From a virus (taxonomy: Duplodnaviria > Heunggongvirae > Uroviricota > Caudoviricetes): 8,280 bases of DNA. Position numbers and translations under genes: made by a program. Shown piece by piece: positions 1 to 6,412 of the stretch. Each line of letters opens with the position of its first letter. Position 1 is the stretch's first letter. A model generated the notes under the pieces. That model ran no database searches. It was not told the origin of the DNA and saw only the letters and a list, made by a program, of their open reading frames with translations. Location of the stretch: IMG/VR virus record IMGVR_UViG_2690316227_000016; one strand, given 5' to 3'.

Positions 1-1242
1 ATGGCGAGAAAAACACACCCATTAACCACAGTGCAGATCAAAGCAGCCAGACCAGCGCAAAAGGAGTACACCCTGCAGGACGGCGGAGGGCTTTTTCTCC
101 TGGTCAAACCGTCTGGATCAAAACTCTGGAGATTTTCCTACTACCGACCATCGGACAAAAAAAGAATATTGCTGAGTTTTGGATCGCTTGAAGATGTTTC
201 CCTGGCTGATGCCAGAAAACGCCGTAGCGAGTACAGGACGTTAATCAGTGCCGGAACTGACCCGCAGGACCACGAGAGGCAAAAAAGAGAGACAGAGGCC
301 CGAAGACAAGGGAACACGTTCGAAAATGTGGCGGCGGCATGGTACCAGGTGAAAATCAGCCAGAATCTGGCCCCCAACACGATTAAAGACATCTGGCGTT
401 CGCTGGATAAATATGTATTCCCGTTCATCGGCAACACGCCAATAGATACCCTCACCGCCCGAAGGTTCGTTGAAGTGCTTACCCCCATCAAGGAGCGCGG
501 CAACCTGGAAACACTCAAGCGGGTTTTACAGCGCGTTAATGAGGTAATGGATTACGCCGCCAACAGTGGGCTGATTGATGCCAATCCGGCTATGAATGTG
601 CGTAAGGCGTTTCCCTCACCTGTAAAAAAACATATGCCAACAATCCGCCCCGAACAGCTGCCGGAGCTTATGCAGGCTTTATCAGTATCGGCAACAGAAC
701 GGCAGACCAGATTACTGATTGAATGGCAGTTACTGACCGTAACCCGTCCCGCCGAAGCGTCATCAACGCGGTGGGATGAAATCAACCTGGACGCGAAGCA
801 ATGGACGATACCTGCCGGACGCATGAAGATGCGCAGGGATCACGTTATCCCGCTTTCCGGTCAGGCTATGGCGGTGCTGGAGGCCATGAAACCAATCAGC
901 CACCACCGCAATTACGTTTTCCCAAGTCTGAAAGACCCACAGCAGCCGATGAACAGCCAGACAGCTAACGCAGCATTGCGGCGTATGGGATTCGCTGGCG
1001 TGCTGGTGTCTCATGGATTACGCGCCATATTCAGCACAGCAGCGAACGAGGAAGGATTCGAGCCGGACGTAATAGAGGCGGCACTTGCCCACGTCGACAC
1101 CAACGAAGTTAGACGGGCATACAACCGGAGCAACTACATAGAAAAACGCATCGTGCTGATGCGCTGGTGGGGCGAATTTGTCGAGGCTGCGGCGACGGGC
1201 GTAACCCTCGCCAGTGGTAAAAGGGGTATCCGAGCCGTGTAG
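1..1242 (+). CDS. int: Tyrosine recombinase / integrase, P4-family (prophage CP4-57-like)
   Basis: 413-aa ORF filling the frame. C-terminal catalytic-type motifs are visible: TRPAEA (Arg), HGLRAIF (His-x-x-Arg), LAHV (second His), RRAYNRSNY (Tyr region). The N-terminal part resembles the arm-binding domain of P4-like integrases. Family assignment is from motif recollection, not a search. Confidence 0.9.
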   Translation: MARKTHPLTTVQIKAARPAQKEYTLQDGGGLFLLVKPSGSKLWRFSYYRPSDKKRILLSFGSLEDVSLADARKRRSEYRTLISAGTDPQDHERQKRETEARRQGNTFENVAAAWYQVKISQNLAPNTIKDIWRSLDKYVFPFIGNTPIDTLTARRFVEVLTPIKERGNLETLKRVLQRVNEVMDYAANSGLIDANPAMNVRKAFPSPVKKHMPTIRPEQLPELMQALSVSATERQTRLLIEWQLLTVTRPAEASSTRWDEINLDAKQWTIPAGRMKMRRDHVIPLSGQAMAVLEAMKPISHHRNYVFPSLKDPQQPMNSQTANAALRRMGFAGVLVSHGLRAIFSTAANEEGFEPDVIEAALAHVDTNEVRRAYNRSNYIEKRIVLMRWWGEFVEAAATGVTLASGKRGIRAV

Positions 1243-1250
1243 CTGTACAG

Positions 1251-1295
1251 AAAACCAGTAAAAACTACGAAAACCATGTAAAACCGTCGTATAAT
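1251..1295 (+). promoter_or_regulatory. Phased A-tracts (AAAAC[C/T] at 1251, 1261, 1270, 1280) followed by a consensus -10 hexamer TATAAT (1290-1295)
   Basis: Four A-tracts at 9-10 bp spacing, read directly, which is typical of bent DNA or an UP-element-like region. A perfect TATAAT follows immediately. No convincing -35 was found. Confidence 0.3.
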
Positions 1296-1319
1296 TGCAT
1301 CAAATTTAACGACAAGGCC

Positions 1320-1571
1320 GTGAAACATGAAACCGTTAAGATGCAAAAAAATATCAGATGCAATTGCGACGGGCTGCAACTGGCCCTGATGGTTCAGCAT
1401 GAATTTTGGTCAACCTACGATCCGGAGGACAGGACGACGGCCCCATCAAAAAAACAGGTAGTAGATTTTCTGGTATCCCGTGGCGCTTCCAGAAATCTGG
1501 CGGTAAGTATTGATAAGGTCGTACGTCCGGCATCTATGAAGATCGGAGGCAGGCCCAAAAAATGGCGGTAA
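1320..1571 (+). CDS. Hypothetical small protein (83 codons from GTG 1320; first in-frame ATG at 1341)
   Basis: ORF bracketed by the TATAAT at 1290-1295 and a strong intrinsic terminator at 1583-1605. Basic C-terminus (GGRPKKWR). No family recognised and the Shine-Dalgarno is weak, so it could instead be a non-coding transcript. Confidence 0.3.
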   Translation: MKHETVKMQKNIRCNCDGLQLALMVQHEFWSTYDPEDRTTAPSKKQVVDFLVSRGASRNLAVSIDKVVRPASMKIGGRPKKWR

Positions 1572-1582
1572 CAATCCTGGAA

Positions 1583-1605
1583 GCGGCAGAAATGCCGCTT
1601 TTTTT
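1583..1605 (+). terminator. Rho-independent terminator
   Basis: GCGGC-agaaat-GCCGC hairpin (1583-1598) followed by T7 (1599-1605). Confidence 0.65.
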
Positions 1606-1632: not shown

Positions 1633-1722
1633 AAAAACGGTGTATACCGTTTAAAAACGGTGGGAACTGTTTTTACCCATATCCGATGATTTACCGTATT
1701 TGTCACCGGAATACACCGGATT
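1633..1722 (+). promoter_or_regulatory. Operator-like repeat cluster upstream of alpA
   Basis: Direct repeat AAAAACGGTG at 1633-1642 and 1653-1662 (20-bp phasing). Perfect inverted repeat ACGGT-gtat-ACCGT at 1637-1650. Direct repeat CACCGGA at 1704-1710 and 1714-1720 (10-bp phasing). Confidence 0.35.
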
Positions 1723-1738
1723 CACAAGGTAAATCACG

Positions 1739-1945
1739 ATGGAAGCAATCAGAAAAATTATCTTTCGCCAGGAAGTAAAAAAAATTATCCACATCAAGGC
1801 AGACAGCACGCTGCAAAGCATGATCAACGCCGGAGAATTTCCGCAGGGTTTTCGCGTTGGTTTACGCCGTCGCGGATGGTATGAGGATGATGTGTTGGCC
1901 TGGCAGAAAGAACGCGAACAGGAAGCACGCGGAACGGCTGCTTAA
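1739..1945 (+). CDS. alpA: AlpA-family phage transcriptional regulator (small HTH/MerR-like)
   Basis: 68-aa protein with the characteristic AlpA-family C-terminal region (EFPQGFRVGLRRRGWYEDDVLAWQKERE). Position immediately after int is typical for P4-like elements and PICIs. Confidence 0.8.
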   Translation: MEAIRKIIFRQEVKKIIHIKADSTLQSMINAGEFPQGFRVGLRRRGWYEDDVLAWQKEREQEARGTAA

Positions 1946-2561: not shown

Positions 2562-2588
2562 TAACACAAGAGCACTTAAAAAAGCAAA

Positions 2589-2619
2589 GCCCCGCAAGTG
2601 TCATTACCACTCGCAGGGC
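2589..2619 (+). promoter_or_regulatory. Leader stem-loop upstream of the first Icd-like gene
   Basis: GCCCCGCAAGTG (2589-2600) and CACTCGCAGGGC (2608-2619) pair at 10 of 12 positions around a 7-nt loop. No T-run follows, so it is not a terminator. Confidence 0.3.
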
Positions 2620-2650
2620 TTCTAACCAACAACGTAAACTAGGAGCCGTT

Positions 2651-2848
2651 ATGGTTGCCGTAAATCATATACCACACCTTGTACACACACAAACGGCCTT
2701 TGTGTGGCGTTTTCTGGCCCTGAGTGCCGGAGAATCTCAAATCATCCACGTAACCGCCTGGACGGAACGCGAAGCGCGTAGCCGTTGCCCGTCCGGTTGT
2801 GTTGCTGTATTCGCCGCCCGTATTCGTCAGGGGTCACATCATGCGTAA
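2651..2848 (+). CDS. Icd-like small protein, copy 1 (host cell division inhibitor Icd-like family, tentative)
   Basis: 65 aa with an AGGAG 6 nt upstream of ATG 2651. Shares the motifs FVWRF...T...TEREAR...FxARIRQG with the ORF at 3135. The family name is from recollection of P4-like prophage annotations, not a search. Confidence 0.5.
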   Translation: MVAVNHIPHLVHTQTAFVWRFLALSAGESQIIHVTAWTEREARSRCPSGCVAVFAARIRQGSHHA

Positions 2849-2868
2849 AAACCGCTTGCAAAAAATTA

Positions 2869-3105
2869 TAACGGGGCTGTATGCTTCCCCCGTCGCCCAC
2901 ATGGCGACCGGGTTTAGCAGCCTGAATACTGTAGCGGACAGCCGCTTATATTCCGATATGCGGTTTTTTTGTGTCCGTAAGCCTACCCATACCCGCATTA
3001 TGGCGGGGCGTAACGGGGGAGCCTTTGCGCTCGCTGGTTCCTACAGTGCCAGTCTGCTAACCCTGTTACGTCTCGCCACCCCGTTTAGCAGCGTAGTAGC
3101 GAGAC
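2869..3105 (+). repeat. Duplicated non-coding module between the Icd-like genes
   Basis: TAACGGGG at 2869-2876 and 3011-3018. GTTTAGCAGC at 2912-2921 and 3083-3092, followed by GTAGCGGACAG and GTAGCGAGAC respectively. A near-complementary CTGCTAA-CCC element sits at 3054-3063. Small hairpins at 2871-2893, 2892-2908 and 2992-3007. Confidence 0.4.
2934..2970 (+). terminator. Intrinsic terminator-like hairpin plus T7
   Basis: GCGG-aca-GCCGC (2934-2945) and a CCGC...GCGG stem (2942-2963) followed by T7 (2964-2970). It lies inside the apparent N-terminal extension of ORF 2799..3299, which argues that the extension is non-coding. Confidence 0.5.
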
Positions 3106-3531: not shown

Positions 3532-3831
3532 ATGAAACTTAAATATCCTGGCTTAACTGCCAGCGGCAAAACTCGCACTAAATTCATGTGCGGGGATATT
3601 TACCGCGATAAGTACGGCGGAACGGTAATGATTAAGGGCGTGGAGGAACGGCGCGTAACTTACCGCCGTGAAGGCTACGAATATGATTGCGTTATGCCTG
3701 TTTATCAGTTCGACCGTGATTTTTATCTGGTACAGGCAGCGCCCCGCAGTAAGCCAACCAGCAGGGAGAAAGCACGCGCCAATATTCAGGAAATAAGAAA
3801 GATGTTGAACGTATTCAGGGGTAAAAAATGA
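3532..3831 (+). CDS. Hypothetical protein (99 aa)
   Basis: Begins MKLKYPG. Its stop overlaps the start of the replication ATPase (ATGA at 3828-3831). Protein-like composition; possibly a prophage DUF family, unverified. Confidence 0.5.
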   Translation: MKLKYPGLTASGKTRTKFMCGDIYRDKYGGTVMIKGVEERRVTYRREGYEYDCVMPVYQFDRDFYLVQAAPRSKPTSREKARANIQEIRKMLNVFRGKK

Positions 3832-5237
3832 AACTTGCACCGAACGTAAAACAATTACCGAAAGACAAATACACCGAAGCAATTATTTTCGCGGGGAATG
3901 ATGCGCACTCATTTGCAGAGCACTACATCATTGCACAGGCCAAAAAAGCAGGCGATCCAGTCCCCCCCGTTTATCTGGGGTGTTATCAGTTAAGCGAACT
4001 GGATAACCTCCAGATTGTTGATGATGGGCGATACAGGGCGACGGTGATACGCGCCGGAAATATTGAAGAGCCGCAGCTGTTAACCATCGCCACGAAACTG
4101 GCGATCGCCGGAGTCCAGGAGGCGCGGCTAATTTCTGAAAATTTCGAATTGCTGGAGGAATGGAACGACCAGCTTCCACGGCTTAGGGAGGCATGGGAAC
4201 GCGGGGAAAGCCTGGTCATGAAAAAAATCCCCCAGCGAAAAACCACGCTACCGATGAGCGTTGGATCTACCGGATACGACACGCAGCTTGATTACGTGGT
4301 AAAGGGGATTATTCCGGCATCGTCGCTTTGCAGCATATACGGGGCGAGCGGTTCCTATAAATCATTCCTTGCCGGATCGTGGGCGTGTCACGTTTCCACG
4401 GGCCGCCAGTGGGGAGGCCGCAGGGTGGCGCATGGCGCTGTTCTCTATGTGGTTGGTGAAGGCGGTATTGGCGTTCCGCGTCGTGTAAAAGCCTGGGAGG
4501 TTGTGCACGGGGAGCAGGTGAAAAATCTTTACCTTGTAAACCGTCCCATCTTTCCGGCTGTCCCGCTTGATGTTGATGAACTGGTTATTGCTGCCAGCCA
4601 GGTTGAGCGGGAAACGGGTAAACCGGTTCTAATGATTATTCTGGACACGCTGGCGCGTTGCTTTGGCGGCAATGACGAAAATGACTCCCGTGACATGGGG
4701 GCGTTTATCCGTGGATGTGACGAACTGAAACGACGCACAGGGGCCACGGTGCTGGTGGTTCACCATTCCGGCAAGGATGAAACAAAGGGCGCGCGTGGTT
4801 CCAGTGCATTCCGTGCATCGCTGGACGCTGAATACAGGATACGCAGAGAGGACGCAGGAAGCGAAGCGCTGGTCATCTCATGCACCAAAATGAAGGACGC
4901 GGAGGAACTCAAAGAGGCTGCCTATGATTTGCGGGTTGTGGAGCTTTTTACCGACGCTGACGGCGAATTAATTACGTCGCTGGTGGTGGTGGATGAGCCG
5001 CGCCCACCCGTTGAACTGGAGCGCATCGAGGAGGCAGGCAACAAGACGGAAAACCATACCGCGCTATGGGGGTGCATCCGTTCACGCACACAGAACGGCG
5101 ACAAGTGCACGATCCCGCTGTTGCGTGATGACATGAAGAAGATGGGATACGAAATGAAGCACTTCCGGCGCTGGCTGGGCAAGCTGGAAAAAGACGGCGT
5201 TATCTATGTTGACGGCGATGATGTAGGGCCACTGTAA
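3828..5237 (+). CDS. Replication ATPase/helicase, RecA-like (AAA_25/RepA-type); probable satellite replication initiator
   Basis: 469 aa with a P-loop-like GASGSYKS, a Walker B-like PVLMIILD, and the VLVVHHSGKDETKGARGSSAFRASLD block typical of RepA-like NTPases. The C-terminal roughly 100 aa could be a DNA-binding domain. An iteron array follows directly. Confidence 0.85.
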   Translation: MKLAPNVKQLPKDKYTEAIIFAGNDAHSFAEHYIIAQAKKAGDPVPPVYLGCYQLSELDNLQIVDDGRYRATVIRAGNIEEPQLLTIATKLAIAGVQEARLISENFELLEEWNDQLPRLREAWERGESLVMKKIPQRKTTLPMSVGSTGYDTQLDYVVKGIIPASSLCSIYGASGSYKSFLAGSWACHVSTGRQWGGRRVAHGAVLYVVGEGGIGVPRRVKAWEVVHGEQVKNLYLVNRPIFPAVPLDVDELVIAASQVERETGKPVLMIILDTLARCFGGNDENDSRDMGAFIRGCDELKRRTGATVLVVHHSGKDETKGARGSSAFRASLDAEYRIRREDAGSEALVISCTKMKDAEELKEAAYDLRVVELFTDADGELITSLVVVDEPRPPVELERIEEAGNKTENHTALWGCIRSRTQNGDKCTIPLLRDDMKKMGYEMKHFRRWLGKLEKDGVIYVDGDDVGPL

Positions 5238-6217: not shown

Positions 6218-6412
6218 GTGGAAGAGATAAAGCAAAGCGCTACCGTGATGATTGATCATGAAATCCTTAACGAGCTTAAAAAGTTGCAGTTCGATATTGT
6301 TCGCCGGATGAATGAATCGGGCATCTACGGCAGAGCCGCCACGCCAACAATAGGTCATCTTGCACGTGTGCTGTTACGCGAAAGACTGGGCATTGCAACA
6401 GGTGAGGCATAA
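6218..6412 (+). CDS. Hypothetical small protein (64 aa, GTG start)
   Basis: Strong AGGAGG at 6205-6210, 7 nt before GTG 6218. Could be a small DNA-binding protein, but this is unverified. Confidence 0.45.
   Translation: MEEIKQSATVMIDHEILNELKKLQFDIVRRMNESGIYGRAATPTIGHLARVLLRERLGIATGEA

Follow-up and report, generated by a model that had tools for sequence, protein, structure and literature searches.

We have identified a short protein-coding gene, here called X, between the integrase gene (int) and alpA in a PICI / P4-like phage satellite of E. coli. The left part of this satellite makes up the window, by which we mean the whole stretch of 8,280 nucleotides of viral DNA that was analysed. X is the short form of an uncharacterised and widespread protein family in the integration module of satellites. 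It keeps the same place in the gene order, is strictly linked to one alpA allele, and stands between a conserved LexA-like palindrome with a conserved -10 hexamer on the one side and a conserved terminator on the other. Considering these features, our preferred reading is that X is an SOS-controlled small regulatory gene placed before the alpA switch of E. coli PICIs. We hold this reading tentatively, at a probability of roughly 45%.

The genomic context places the island at the tRNA-Pro gene proL, downstream of yejM. In the window, int is followed by the X unit, alpA and a C4-type antisense RNA with its a1b1 target (2879-3083), and then by a RepA-like AAA_25 helicase gene (3828-5237), ssb, a small-terminase-like gene and a capsid gene. 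The prototype EcCICFT073 shows the same architecture (int, alpA, C4-type immunity RNA/Icd-like region, primase/helicase, ssb, capsid); however, both EcCICFT073 and EcCIMP1 have no X homologue and carry another alpA allele. Likewise, the element type and the gene order agree with the published integration zone of Gram-negative PICIs, but these descriptions give int and AlpA alone, and X is absent from them (PMC10111431, PMC6092414). The features of the region around X are collected in Table 1.

Further downstream, the C4 antisense RNA itself (RF01695, 71.5 bits) lies at 2996-3083. Its a1b1 target element occupies 2879-2928 and scores 45.5 bits, slightly below the gathering score; an isrK-like match covers 2892-2970. 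C4 and a1b1 represent the P1/P7-type RNA immunity and are located beside Icd-like ORFs in the 'Bro zone' of the satellite.

Table 1. Features between the start of int and the end of alpA, in positions of the window (a point in the strand column: no strand assigned)
Feature	Position	Strand	Evidence or description
P4-type tyrosine integrase gene int	1-1242	+	Pfam Arm-DNA-bind_3, Phage_int_M, Phage_integrase; NCBIfam PRK09692; genomic context
LexA (SOS) box-like palindrome AGCTGTACAGAAAACCAGTA (CTG-N10-CAG), overlapping the int stop codon	1241-1260	.	Weight-matrix score and conservation
'Phased A-tracts', two copies of GAAAACCAkkTAAAAC (1250-1265, 1269-1284)	1250-1284	+	
Putative sigma-70 promoter	1267-1295	+	-35 ACGAAA (3/6), 17-nt spacer, -10 TATAAT (6/6); predicted start near 1302
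Gene X, 76-aa basic protein, WP_001171357.1 (hypothetical)	1341-1571	+	Purifying selection, homologues, RefSeq CDS, AF2 model
Intrinsic terminator between X and alpA	1579-1605	+	10-bp stem 1579-1602, then U run (U7)
Operator-like half-sites AAAACGGT / ACCGTTT / ACTGTTT in alternating orientation, upstream of alpA	1633-1698	.	
Two CACCGGAWW direct repeats adjoining the alpA ribosome-binding site	1704-1722	+	
alpA (AlpA/HTH_17-like regulator)	1739-1945	+	Domain matches and genomic context; constant companion of the X cassette

Gene X and its protein family

A preliminary description of this DNA had left a choice between a small basic protein and a non-coding RNA as the product of the unit behind int. 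We find that 1341-1571 is a real protein-coding gene and not an ncRNA. We aligned the interval from the int stop codon to the alpA start codon in nine islands that are 68-95% identical (alignments A1 and A6). In these alignments, the last two-thirds of the ORF are conserved and the changes concentrate in third codon positions. Differences within X number 16, 9 and 34-37 at the first, second and third codon positions, and the two other frames are full of stop codons. By the Nei-Gojobori method, the ratio of synonymous to non-synonymous differences in close pairs is 6:1 (window against L002) and 6:0 (L005 against L006); between the island clades, pS is 0.76-0.83, which is saturated, and pN is 0.17-0.19. 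The ncRNA reading is rejected because of this excess of third-position substitutions and because Rfam gave no match in 1251-1605; at an E value of 1 or less, the window has Rfam matches only within 2578-3083. The same description had held that missing conservation of the ORF in related islands would speak against the unit, and the comparison showed the ORF to be conserved there.

As regards the length of the gene, 83 codons had been proposed. An ORF of 83 aa beginning with GTG (1320-1571) does exist, but the start that the islands share is the ATG at 1341, which gives 76 aa. The GTG at 1320 is not kept in the other aligned islands and was rejected as the start. The ATG is the common start in most aligned islands, which retain a variable N-terminus of 8-9 residues, and the RefSeq CDS begins at the same codon. 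Also, residues 10-17 of X show synonymous variation, and therefore translation starts upstream of these residues. The start signals had been called weak, and this is correct, because the ATG lacks a good Shine-Dalgarno sequence.

Two further observations concern the coding region. An out-of-frame upstream ORF of 20 codons (1327-1389, MKPLRCKKISDAIATGCNWP) has a Shine-Dalgarno sequence (AAGG, 9 nt upstream) better than that of X, and its end, TGATG, shares bases with the Met17 codon of X; six of the nine islands, but not all, have a similar upstream ORF. Additionally, variants among E. coli proteins in public data (P0049 and P0030) are of two kinds. One, of 90 aa, is an in-frame fusion of the N-terminal half of X with the C-terminal half of AlpA, and the other is a frameshifted X of 63 aa. 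Both are probably products of deletion or decay.

The product is indeed small and basic, as the preliminary description had suggested (8.7 kDa, pI 10.0, net charge about +6.6). In the AlphaFold2 model (12-sequence alignment, pLDDT 78), X has three helices (residues 11-23, 37-46 and 51-61), and its basic tail, GGRPKKWR, is disordered. Searches against Pfam, NCBIfam, PHROGs and PADLOC gave no profile match for X above threshold, and a profile search of 1.84 billion representative proteins returned 452 relatives at E<1e-3. Spurious ankyrin-repeat matches aside, the X domain forms the extreme C-terminus of proteins of 190-280 aa. By sequence comparison, X is the stand-alone form of the C-terminal domain of 'hypothetical' proteins of ~200-250 aa. 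The ankyrin matches, which came from the PDB and the representative search, were rejected as artefacts of short repeat motifs. The motif of the domain is (W)PWGxHxTxLL...FWSTYDPxDxxTAPxxxxVxxWLxxxGxSxxxAxxIxxILRPxxLxxG(R/P)R(P)K.

The long-form relatives, all named 'hypothetical protein' and with no Pfam domain found, consist of a variable N-domain, a linker and a conserved C-domain. For an enterobacterial long form of 231 aa, AF2 predicts an alpha/beta domain at the N-terminus with confidence; a disordered linker (130-157) leads from it to the X domain at the C-terminus. Accessions of the family proteins were not found in the literature searched.

Basic arms beside a helical module are known from AT-hook and HTH-plus-basic-arm DNA binders, for example the GRPR arm of Hin. 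X resembles these binders in having a GRP core flanked by K/R beside its three-helix module. In contrast to them, its tail is C-terminal, and many relatives have GPRK or lack GRP; KGRPRK or RGRP is present in several relatives, and GPRK or GLKQ/AHLRN in others. On the basis of the model, we consider that X may bind DNA by its three helices and its basic, partly AT-hook-like tail. The most conserved residues of X form a helix-loop surface, which would also suit protein-protein contact.

The slot between int and alpA

In every readable context, the X family has a P4-type integrase gene (Arm-DNA-bind_3) on one side and an AlpA/HTH_17 gene on the other, the latter followed by Bro/Rha/Ash and primase genes. 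The slot is conserved in satellites and islands across Proteobacteria. The E. coli short form occupies three sites, namely proL after yejM and two others, whose flanking genes (eptB-like; wecG-permease) suggest proK and proM. Long forms are located in the same slot in E. coli (P0228) and Salmonella (P0207). The slot also occurs in a Gammaproteobacteria MAG, in Sedimenticola, in a Burkholderiaceae genome and in two metagenome contigs; a scan of genome contigs for the family found only two loci. Between the short-form and the long-form E. coli islands, X, AlpA and Int are each about 34-36% identical. In the islands L019 and L020 (4232-4908), which carry protein P0006 and whose sites are taken as proM and proK, the distance from X to alpA is about 680 nt, compared with about 170 nt elsewhere.

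The short-form cassette is present in 374 of 5426 complete E. coli genomes. When X and the alpA operators plus alpA were used as separate queries, each was found in exactly 374 of the complete genomes, at 387 places, and X co-occurs with its alpA allele in all of the 374. ATCC 25922 carries the cassette with 99.6% DNA identity. In Nissle 1917, X and alpA are both identical and form a single block with a truncated int on an otherwise EcCICFT073-like island, and therefore the left-end module has been exchanged as a block. This hybrid (L027 2922-3833) is located at the roxA/pepT site and joins a 3' fragment of a proL-type int to X and alpA.

These distributions bear on the possibility that X is a 'moron', an accessory gene that has a promoter and a terminator of its own and whose product would benefit the host or interfere with phages and take no part in the regulation of the island. 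The layout of promoter, gene and terminator agrees with such a role, no known function or family was found for X, and the related PICIs EcCICFT073 and EcCIMP1 do without the gene. However, a moron would hardly be expected to hold the same slot, from P4-type int to alpA, from E. coli to Burkholderiaceae, or to be co-inherited with one alpA allele in 374 of 374 genomes, and X has no PADLOC match. Accordingly, we regard this explanation as decidedly unlikely.

Two published genes were considered as counterparts of X. EcCIMP1_002, described as an ORF between int and alpA (PMC11773190), was rejected, since that gap contains no X-like ORF. InrR of ICEclc, which was compared by location alone, was dropped on gene position; inrR belongs to a four-gene operon elsewhere on ICEclc and does not adjoin int (PMC3395598).

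LexA-like box and promoter region

The palindrome at the end of int was scored with a LexA weight matrix built from 20 E. coli SOS boxes of the literature, which themselves score 13.0-26.8. With this matrix, AGCTGTACAGAAAACCAGTA scores 16.5 and is the sole site in the window at 8 or above, and the best score in shuffled windows has a 95th percentile of 15.0. The SOS box consensus is TACTG(TA)5CAGTA (PMC9578287). A LexA-like box is present at the int junction in every enterobacterial island examined, with scores of 15.8-24.2. These are 15.8-20.4 at the int-X junctions, and 18.3 (E. coli) and 24.2 (Salmonella) in the long-form islands, whose integrases are about 36% identical to the window integrase. 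The conserved non-coding elements in the nine islands are the -10 hexamer, the palindrome CTGTAC-N7-CAGTA (CTGTAC and CAG without any variation) and, next to the palindrome, TAAAAAC. In 358 kb of fetched DNA, three matches of at least 15.5 fall away from the junction, and all of them are in PICI regulatory gaps, one in the int-alpA gap of EcCICFT073 and two before PICI capsid clusters. Non-enterobacterial members of the family have no LexA-like box at the junction. From the matrix score and the conservation, we infer that LexA would bind at 1241-1260.

Second strong LexA-like boxes, GACTGGATGAACATCCAGTT (19.0, L001 15525-15544) and AACTGGATGAACATCCAGTT (21.1, L008 5410-5429), are located directly upstream of the capsid cluster in the island of strain 135 and in EcCICFT073, and are absent from the window. 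Further CTGK-N8-MCAG matches at 3548-3563 and 6386-6401 bring the total in the window to 3, compared with 0.32 expected; these two have G+C-rich interiors and LexA-matrix scores below 8. In EcCICFT073, six GAACAAC repeats, phased at 10 bp, stand right behind the int stop codon. GAACAAC is the reverse complement of the TTGTTCC/TTGTTTC repeats upstream of the int gene of EcCICFT073, and in the Salmonella long-form island the same GGAACAAC/TTGTTCC sets stand on both sides of the LexA-like box. The GAACAAC / GGAACAAC repeat sets have the coordinates L009 3690-3745 and 2340-2365, and L031 4690-4820.

Behind the box, the four phased A-tracts of the preliminary description are present, with A4-5 starts at 1251, 1260, 1270 and 1280 (spacing 9, 10 and 10). 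The window has one such run of four phased tracts, and of 1000 dinucleotide shuffles only one contained such a run. Their proposed role as bent DNA did not hold as a conserved function and was rejected, since the island types do not share tracts 2 to 4; one proL clade has lost tract 2, and the proK/proM-type islands lack tracts 3 and 4. As to the two GAAAACCAkkTAAAAC repeats, islands outside the proL clade conserve only copy 1, the one overlapping the LexA-like box and TAAAAAC. It is possible that the repeats form an UP-like or activator-site region over the -35 position.

The repeats at 1250-1284 were also considered as integrase arm sites and rejected, because they are absent from attL/attR, where (A/G)GTTATACG repeats are found instead. 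The latter are present upstream of int as two direct and two inverted copies and in the attR arm as two copies (L001 7718-7768; L025 2056-2078; L026 about 11980-12005). Judged by their occurrence in both attL and attR, they are probably the arm-type sites of the integrase. The 11-mer AAACTACGAAA (window 1262-1272), which is found in the X promoter region of this clade only, is a half-site of the perfect palindrome AAACTACGAAATTTTCGTAGTTT, a conserved block at the right end of the island in the attR arm (L025 1977-1999; L026 about 12478-12500). A link between the two was rejected, as the palindrome is unchanged in an island with a different X promoter. Considering that the palindrome and the X promoter do not covary, the match is probably a coincidence.

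The perfect TATAAT at 1290-1295 was confirmed, and its sole other copy on the + strand begins at 1605. The -10 hexamer is unchanged in eight of the nine aligned islands and reads TATAGT in L004. In contrast, the -35 element is a poor match to TTGACA, and for this reason the promoter is absent from the list of the consensus scan. The X promoter may require help from an activator or from the A-rich element upstream of it. The hexamer sequences predict, with this reservation, that TATAAT is used and that transcription would start near 1302. A hairpin in the leader (1296-1345) is not significant (z = -1.6). The second perfect TATAAT (1605-1610) directly follows the U run of the terminator and is not conserved in the divergent clade.

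The LexA-like box lies clear of the core hexamers, with 6 nt between its end and the -35 and 29 nt between its end and the -10, and this spacing is strictly conserved. Three islands share the 29 nt from the box to the -10 although the sequence of these 29 nt differs among them. In the Salmonella island the distance is 28 nt, and a good promoter (TAGACA/17/GATAAT) follows the box.

Coliphage 186 Tum, N15 AntC and Gifsy GfoA/GfhA are LexA-controlled small antirepressors or inducers of temperate elements. X is similar to them as a small mobile-element gene behind a box of the SOS type, and in the same manner it would couple the switch of its element to DNA damage without self-cleavage of a repressor. 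However, no sequence relationship was detected for X (no Pfam match), its host element is a satellite switched by the activator AlpA and not by a CI-type repressor, and its box abuts the -35 without overlap of the core promoter. X could itself be a LexA-controlled antirepressor or SOS modulator like 186 Tum, N15 AntC and the Gifsy antirepressors, acting by protein contact on a helper-prophage repressor, on RecA/LexA or on Int/AlpA. We consider this alternative unlikely.

Terminator, alpA control region and the proposed switch

The strong terminator placed at 1583-1605 by the preliminary description was borne out, with its full extent at 1579-1605. Its fold has an energy of -15 kcal/mol (z = -4.4), none of 200 shuffles is as stable, and it is the sole terminator-like site on the + strand in 1000-2100. 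In the divergent clade, a different hairpin with U7 is located at the same position, so that the structure is kept and the sequence is replaced. There is no terminator-like site on the + strand between int and X, and therefore the hairpin probably ends both the int and the X transcripts before alpA. The idea of a self-contained unit stands in part. On the one hand, the unit has a discrete -10, a small ORF and a terminator. On the other hand, there is no terminator on its int side, and its linkage to alpA and the alpA operators is strict. We conclude that the X unit is probably not fully self-contained.

The position of the terminator raises the alternative that the unit is mainly a cis-acting leader. 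In this case, int/X transcription would stop at 1579-1605, AlpA (or X) would allow read-through into alpA as a positive autoregulation, and the peptide would be secondary. Several points favour this reading. P. aeruginosa AlpA acts as a processive antiterminator. The terminator is kept at its position in two sequence forms and has no counterpart between int and X. AlpA also activates its own expression in PICIs (PMC6092414). However, the strong purifying selection on the X protein across clades and phyla argues against a mere leader, and the X domain is found inside larger proteins as well. Moreover, a leader function is compatible with a protein function and is not a substitute for one. We judge this explanation to be very unlikely.

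Between the terminator and alpA, the half-sites form the series AAAACGGT, ACCGTTT, AAAACGGT and ACTGTTT (1633-1673), plus ACCGTAT, and are nearly invariant in nine islands. They are laid out as a 20-nt repeat (1633-1652 and 1653-1672) plus 1692-1698. A GGTGGG/CCCACC core is enriched in the X-to-alpA gaps of seven independent lineages, with 15 occurrences observed compared with 3.1 expected and no shuffle out of 2000 reaching this number. GGTGGGTACT is present in most short-form islands and in the long-form E. coli island, and the window reads GGTGGGAACT. The CACCGGAWW repeat has 8 matches in L001 compared with 1.38 expected (0 of 200 shuffles), and three copies at 10-bp spacing stand beside the tRNA-Pro core in attL (L001 7591-7618 and 7685). 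These positions suggest that CACCGGAWW repeats are likely to be sites of AlpA as RDF/autoregulator. In the L003 island, three CACCGGAWW copies precede alpA.

Considering these operator-like sites, X might be a maintenance repressor, the Gram-negative counterpart of SaPI Stl. Such a protein would be produced while the island is quiescent and, bound to the palindromic half-sites, would hold alpA off until a helper-phage protein removes it. X is located in the regulatory gap before alpA together with the nearly invariant alternating half-sites at 1633-1673, and unrelated lineages have repeats at about 20-23 bp spacing in the same gap. In likeness to SaPI Stl and PICI Rpr, the regulator would be encoded between int and the lytic genes, and the long forms, with a variable N-domain and a conserved C-domain joined by a linker, are two-domain proteins. 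The global repressor of Gram-negative PICIs has been called unclear (PMC6092414). However, the conserved LexA-like box predicts low expression in the uninduced state, which is the opposite of what a maintenance repressor needs; X would apparently be repressed by the SOS system and not constitutive. Also, X is co-directional with alpA and not divergent from it as in the Stl/Rpr type, it is far smaller than these proteins and has no sequence similarity to them, and EcCICFT073 and EcCIMP1 are quiescent without X. We therefore consider a maintenance repressor improbable.

In our preferred reading of X as an SOS-controlled regulatory gene, LexA beside the -35/UP region would hold X low in the undamaged cell. 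Upon DNA damage, LexA would be removed and X would be made. X would then act on the repeat-rich region before alpA, or on AlpA or Int, and would help to start AlpA-driven excision/replication, and the terminator would keep int and X transcription from entering alpA uncontrolled. Among these possible targets, we infer the alpA control region to be that of X. Three main objections apply to the SOS reading. The box abuts the core promoter without overlapping it, the conserved helix-loop surface of X fits protein-protein contact too, and PICIs without X are induced by helper phage, not by SOS alone.

A 2007 paper cited in PMC6092414 reportedly described LexA control of SaPI operon I, which the LexA-like boxes before the capsid clusters recall. 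The likeness is that LexA operators are found inside phage-inducible chromosomal islands and that related E. coli PICIs have a strong LexA-like box before the capsid cluster. However, LexA acts there on a packaging operon, whereas the box here precedes a small gene of the integration zone, upstream of the master activator.

In a wider interpretation, X and the long forms would be an unrecognised third component of the integration/induction module in satellites with P4-type integrases, namely a LexA-controlled trigger. A large class of Gram-negative PICIs would then respond to DNA damage directly, turning on alpA (or excision), and would not rely on a helper-phage signal alone. We regard this generalisation as doubtful. 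Later surveys give the integration zone as int and AlpA only (PMC10111431), and the X family, conserved and unnamed, sits exactly between the two. The candidate is open to test in the widely used strain Nissle 1917, whose X protein is identical, and in ATCC 25922. If X should prove irrelevant to induction, a new domain family has been defined and a start codon corrected all the same. For the induction of Gram-negative PICIs, X is a concrete candidate for a link from DNA damage to the alpA switch.
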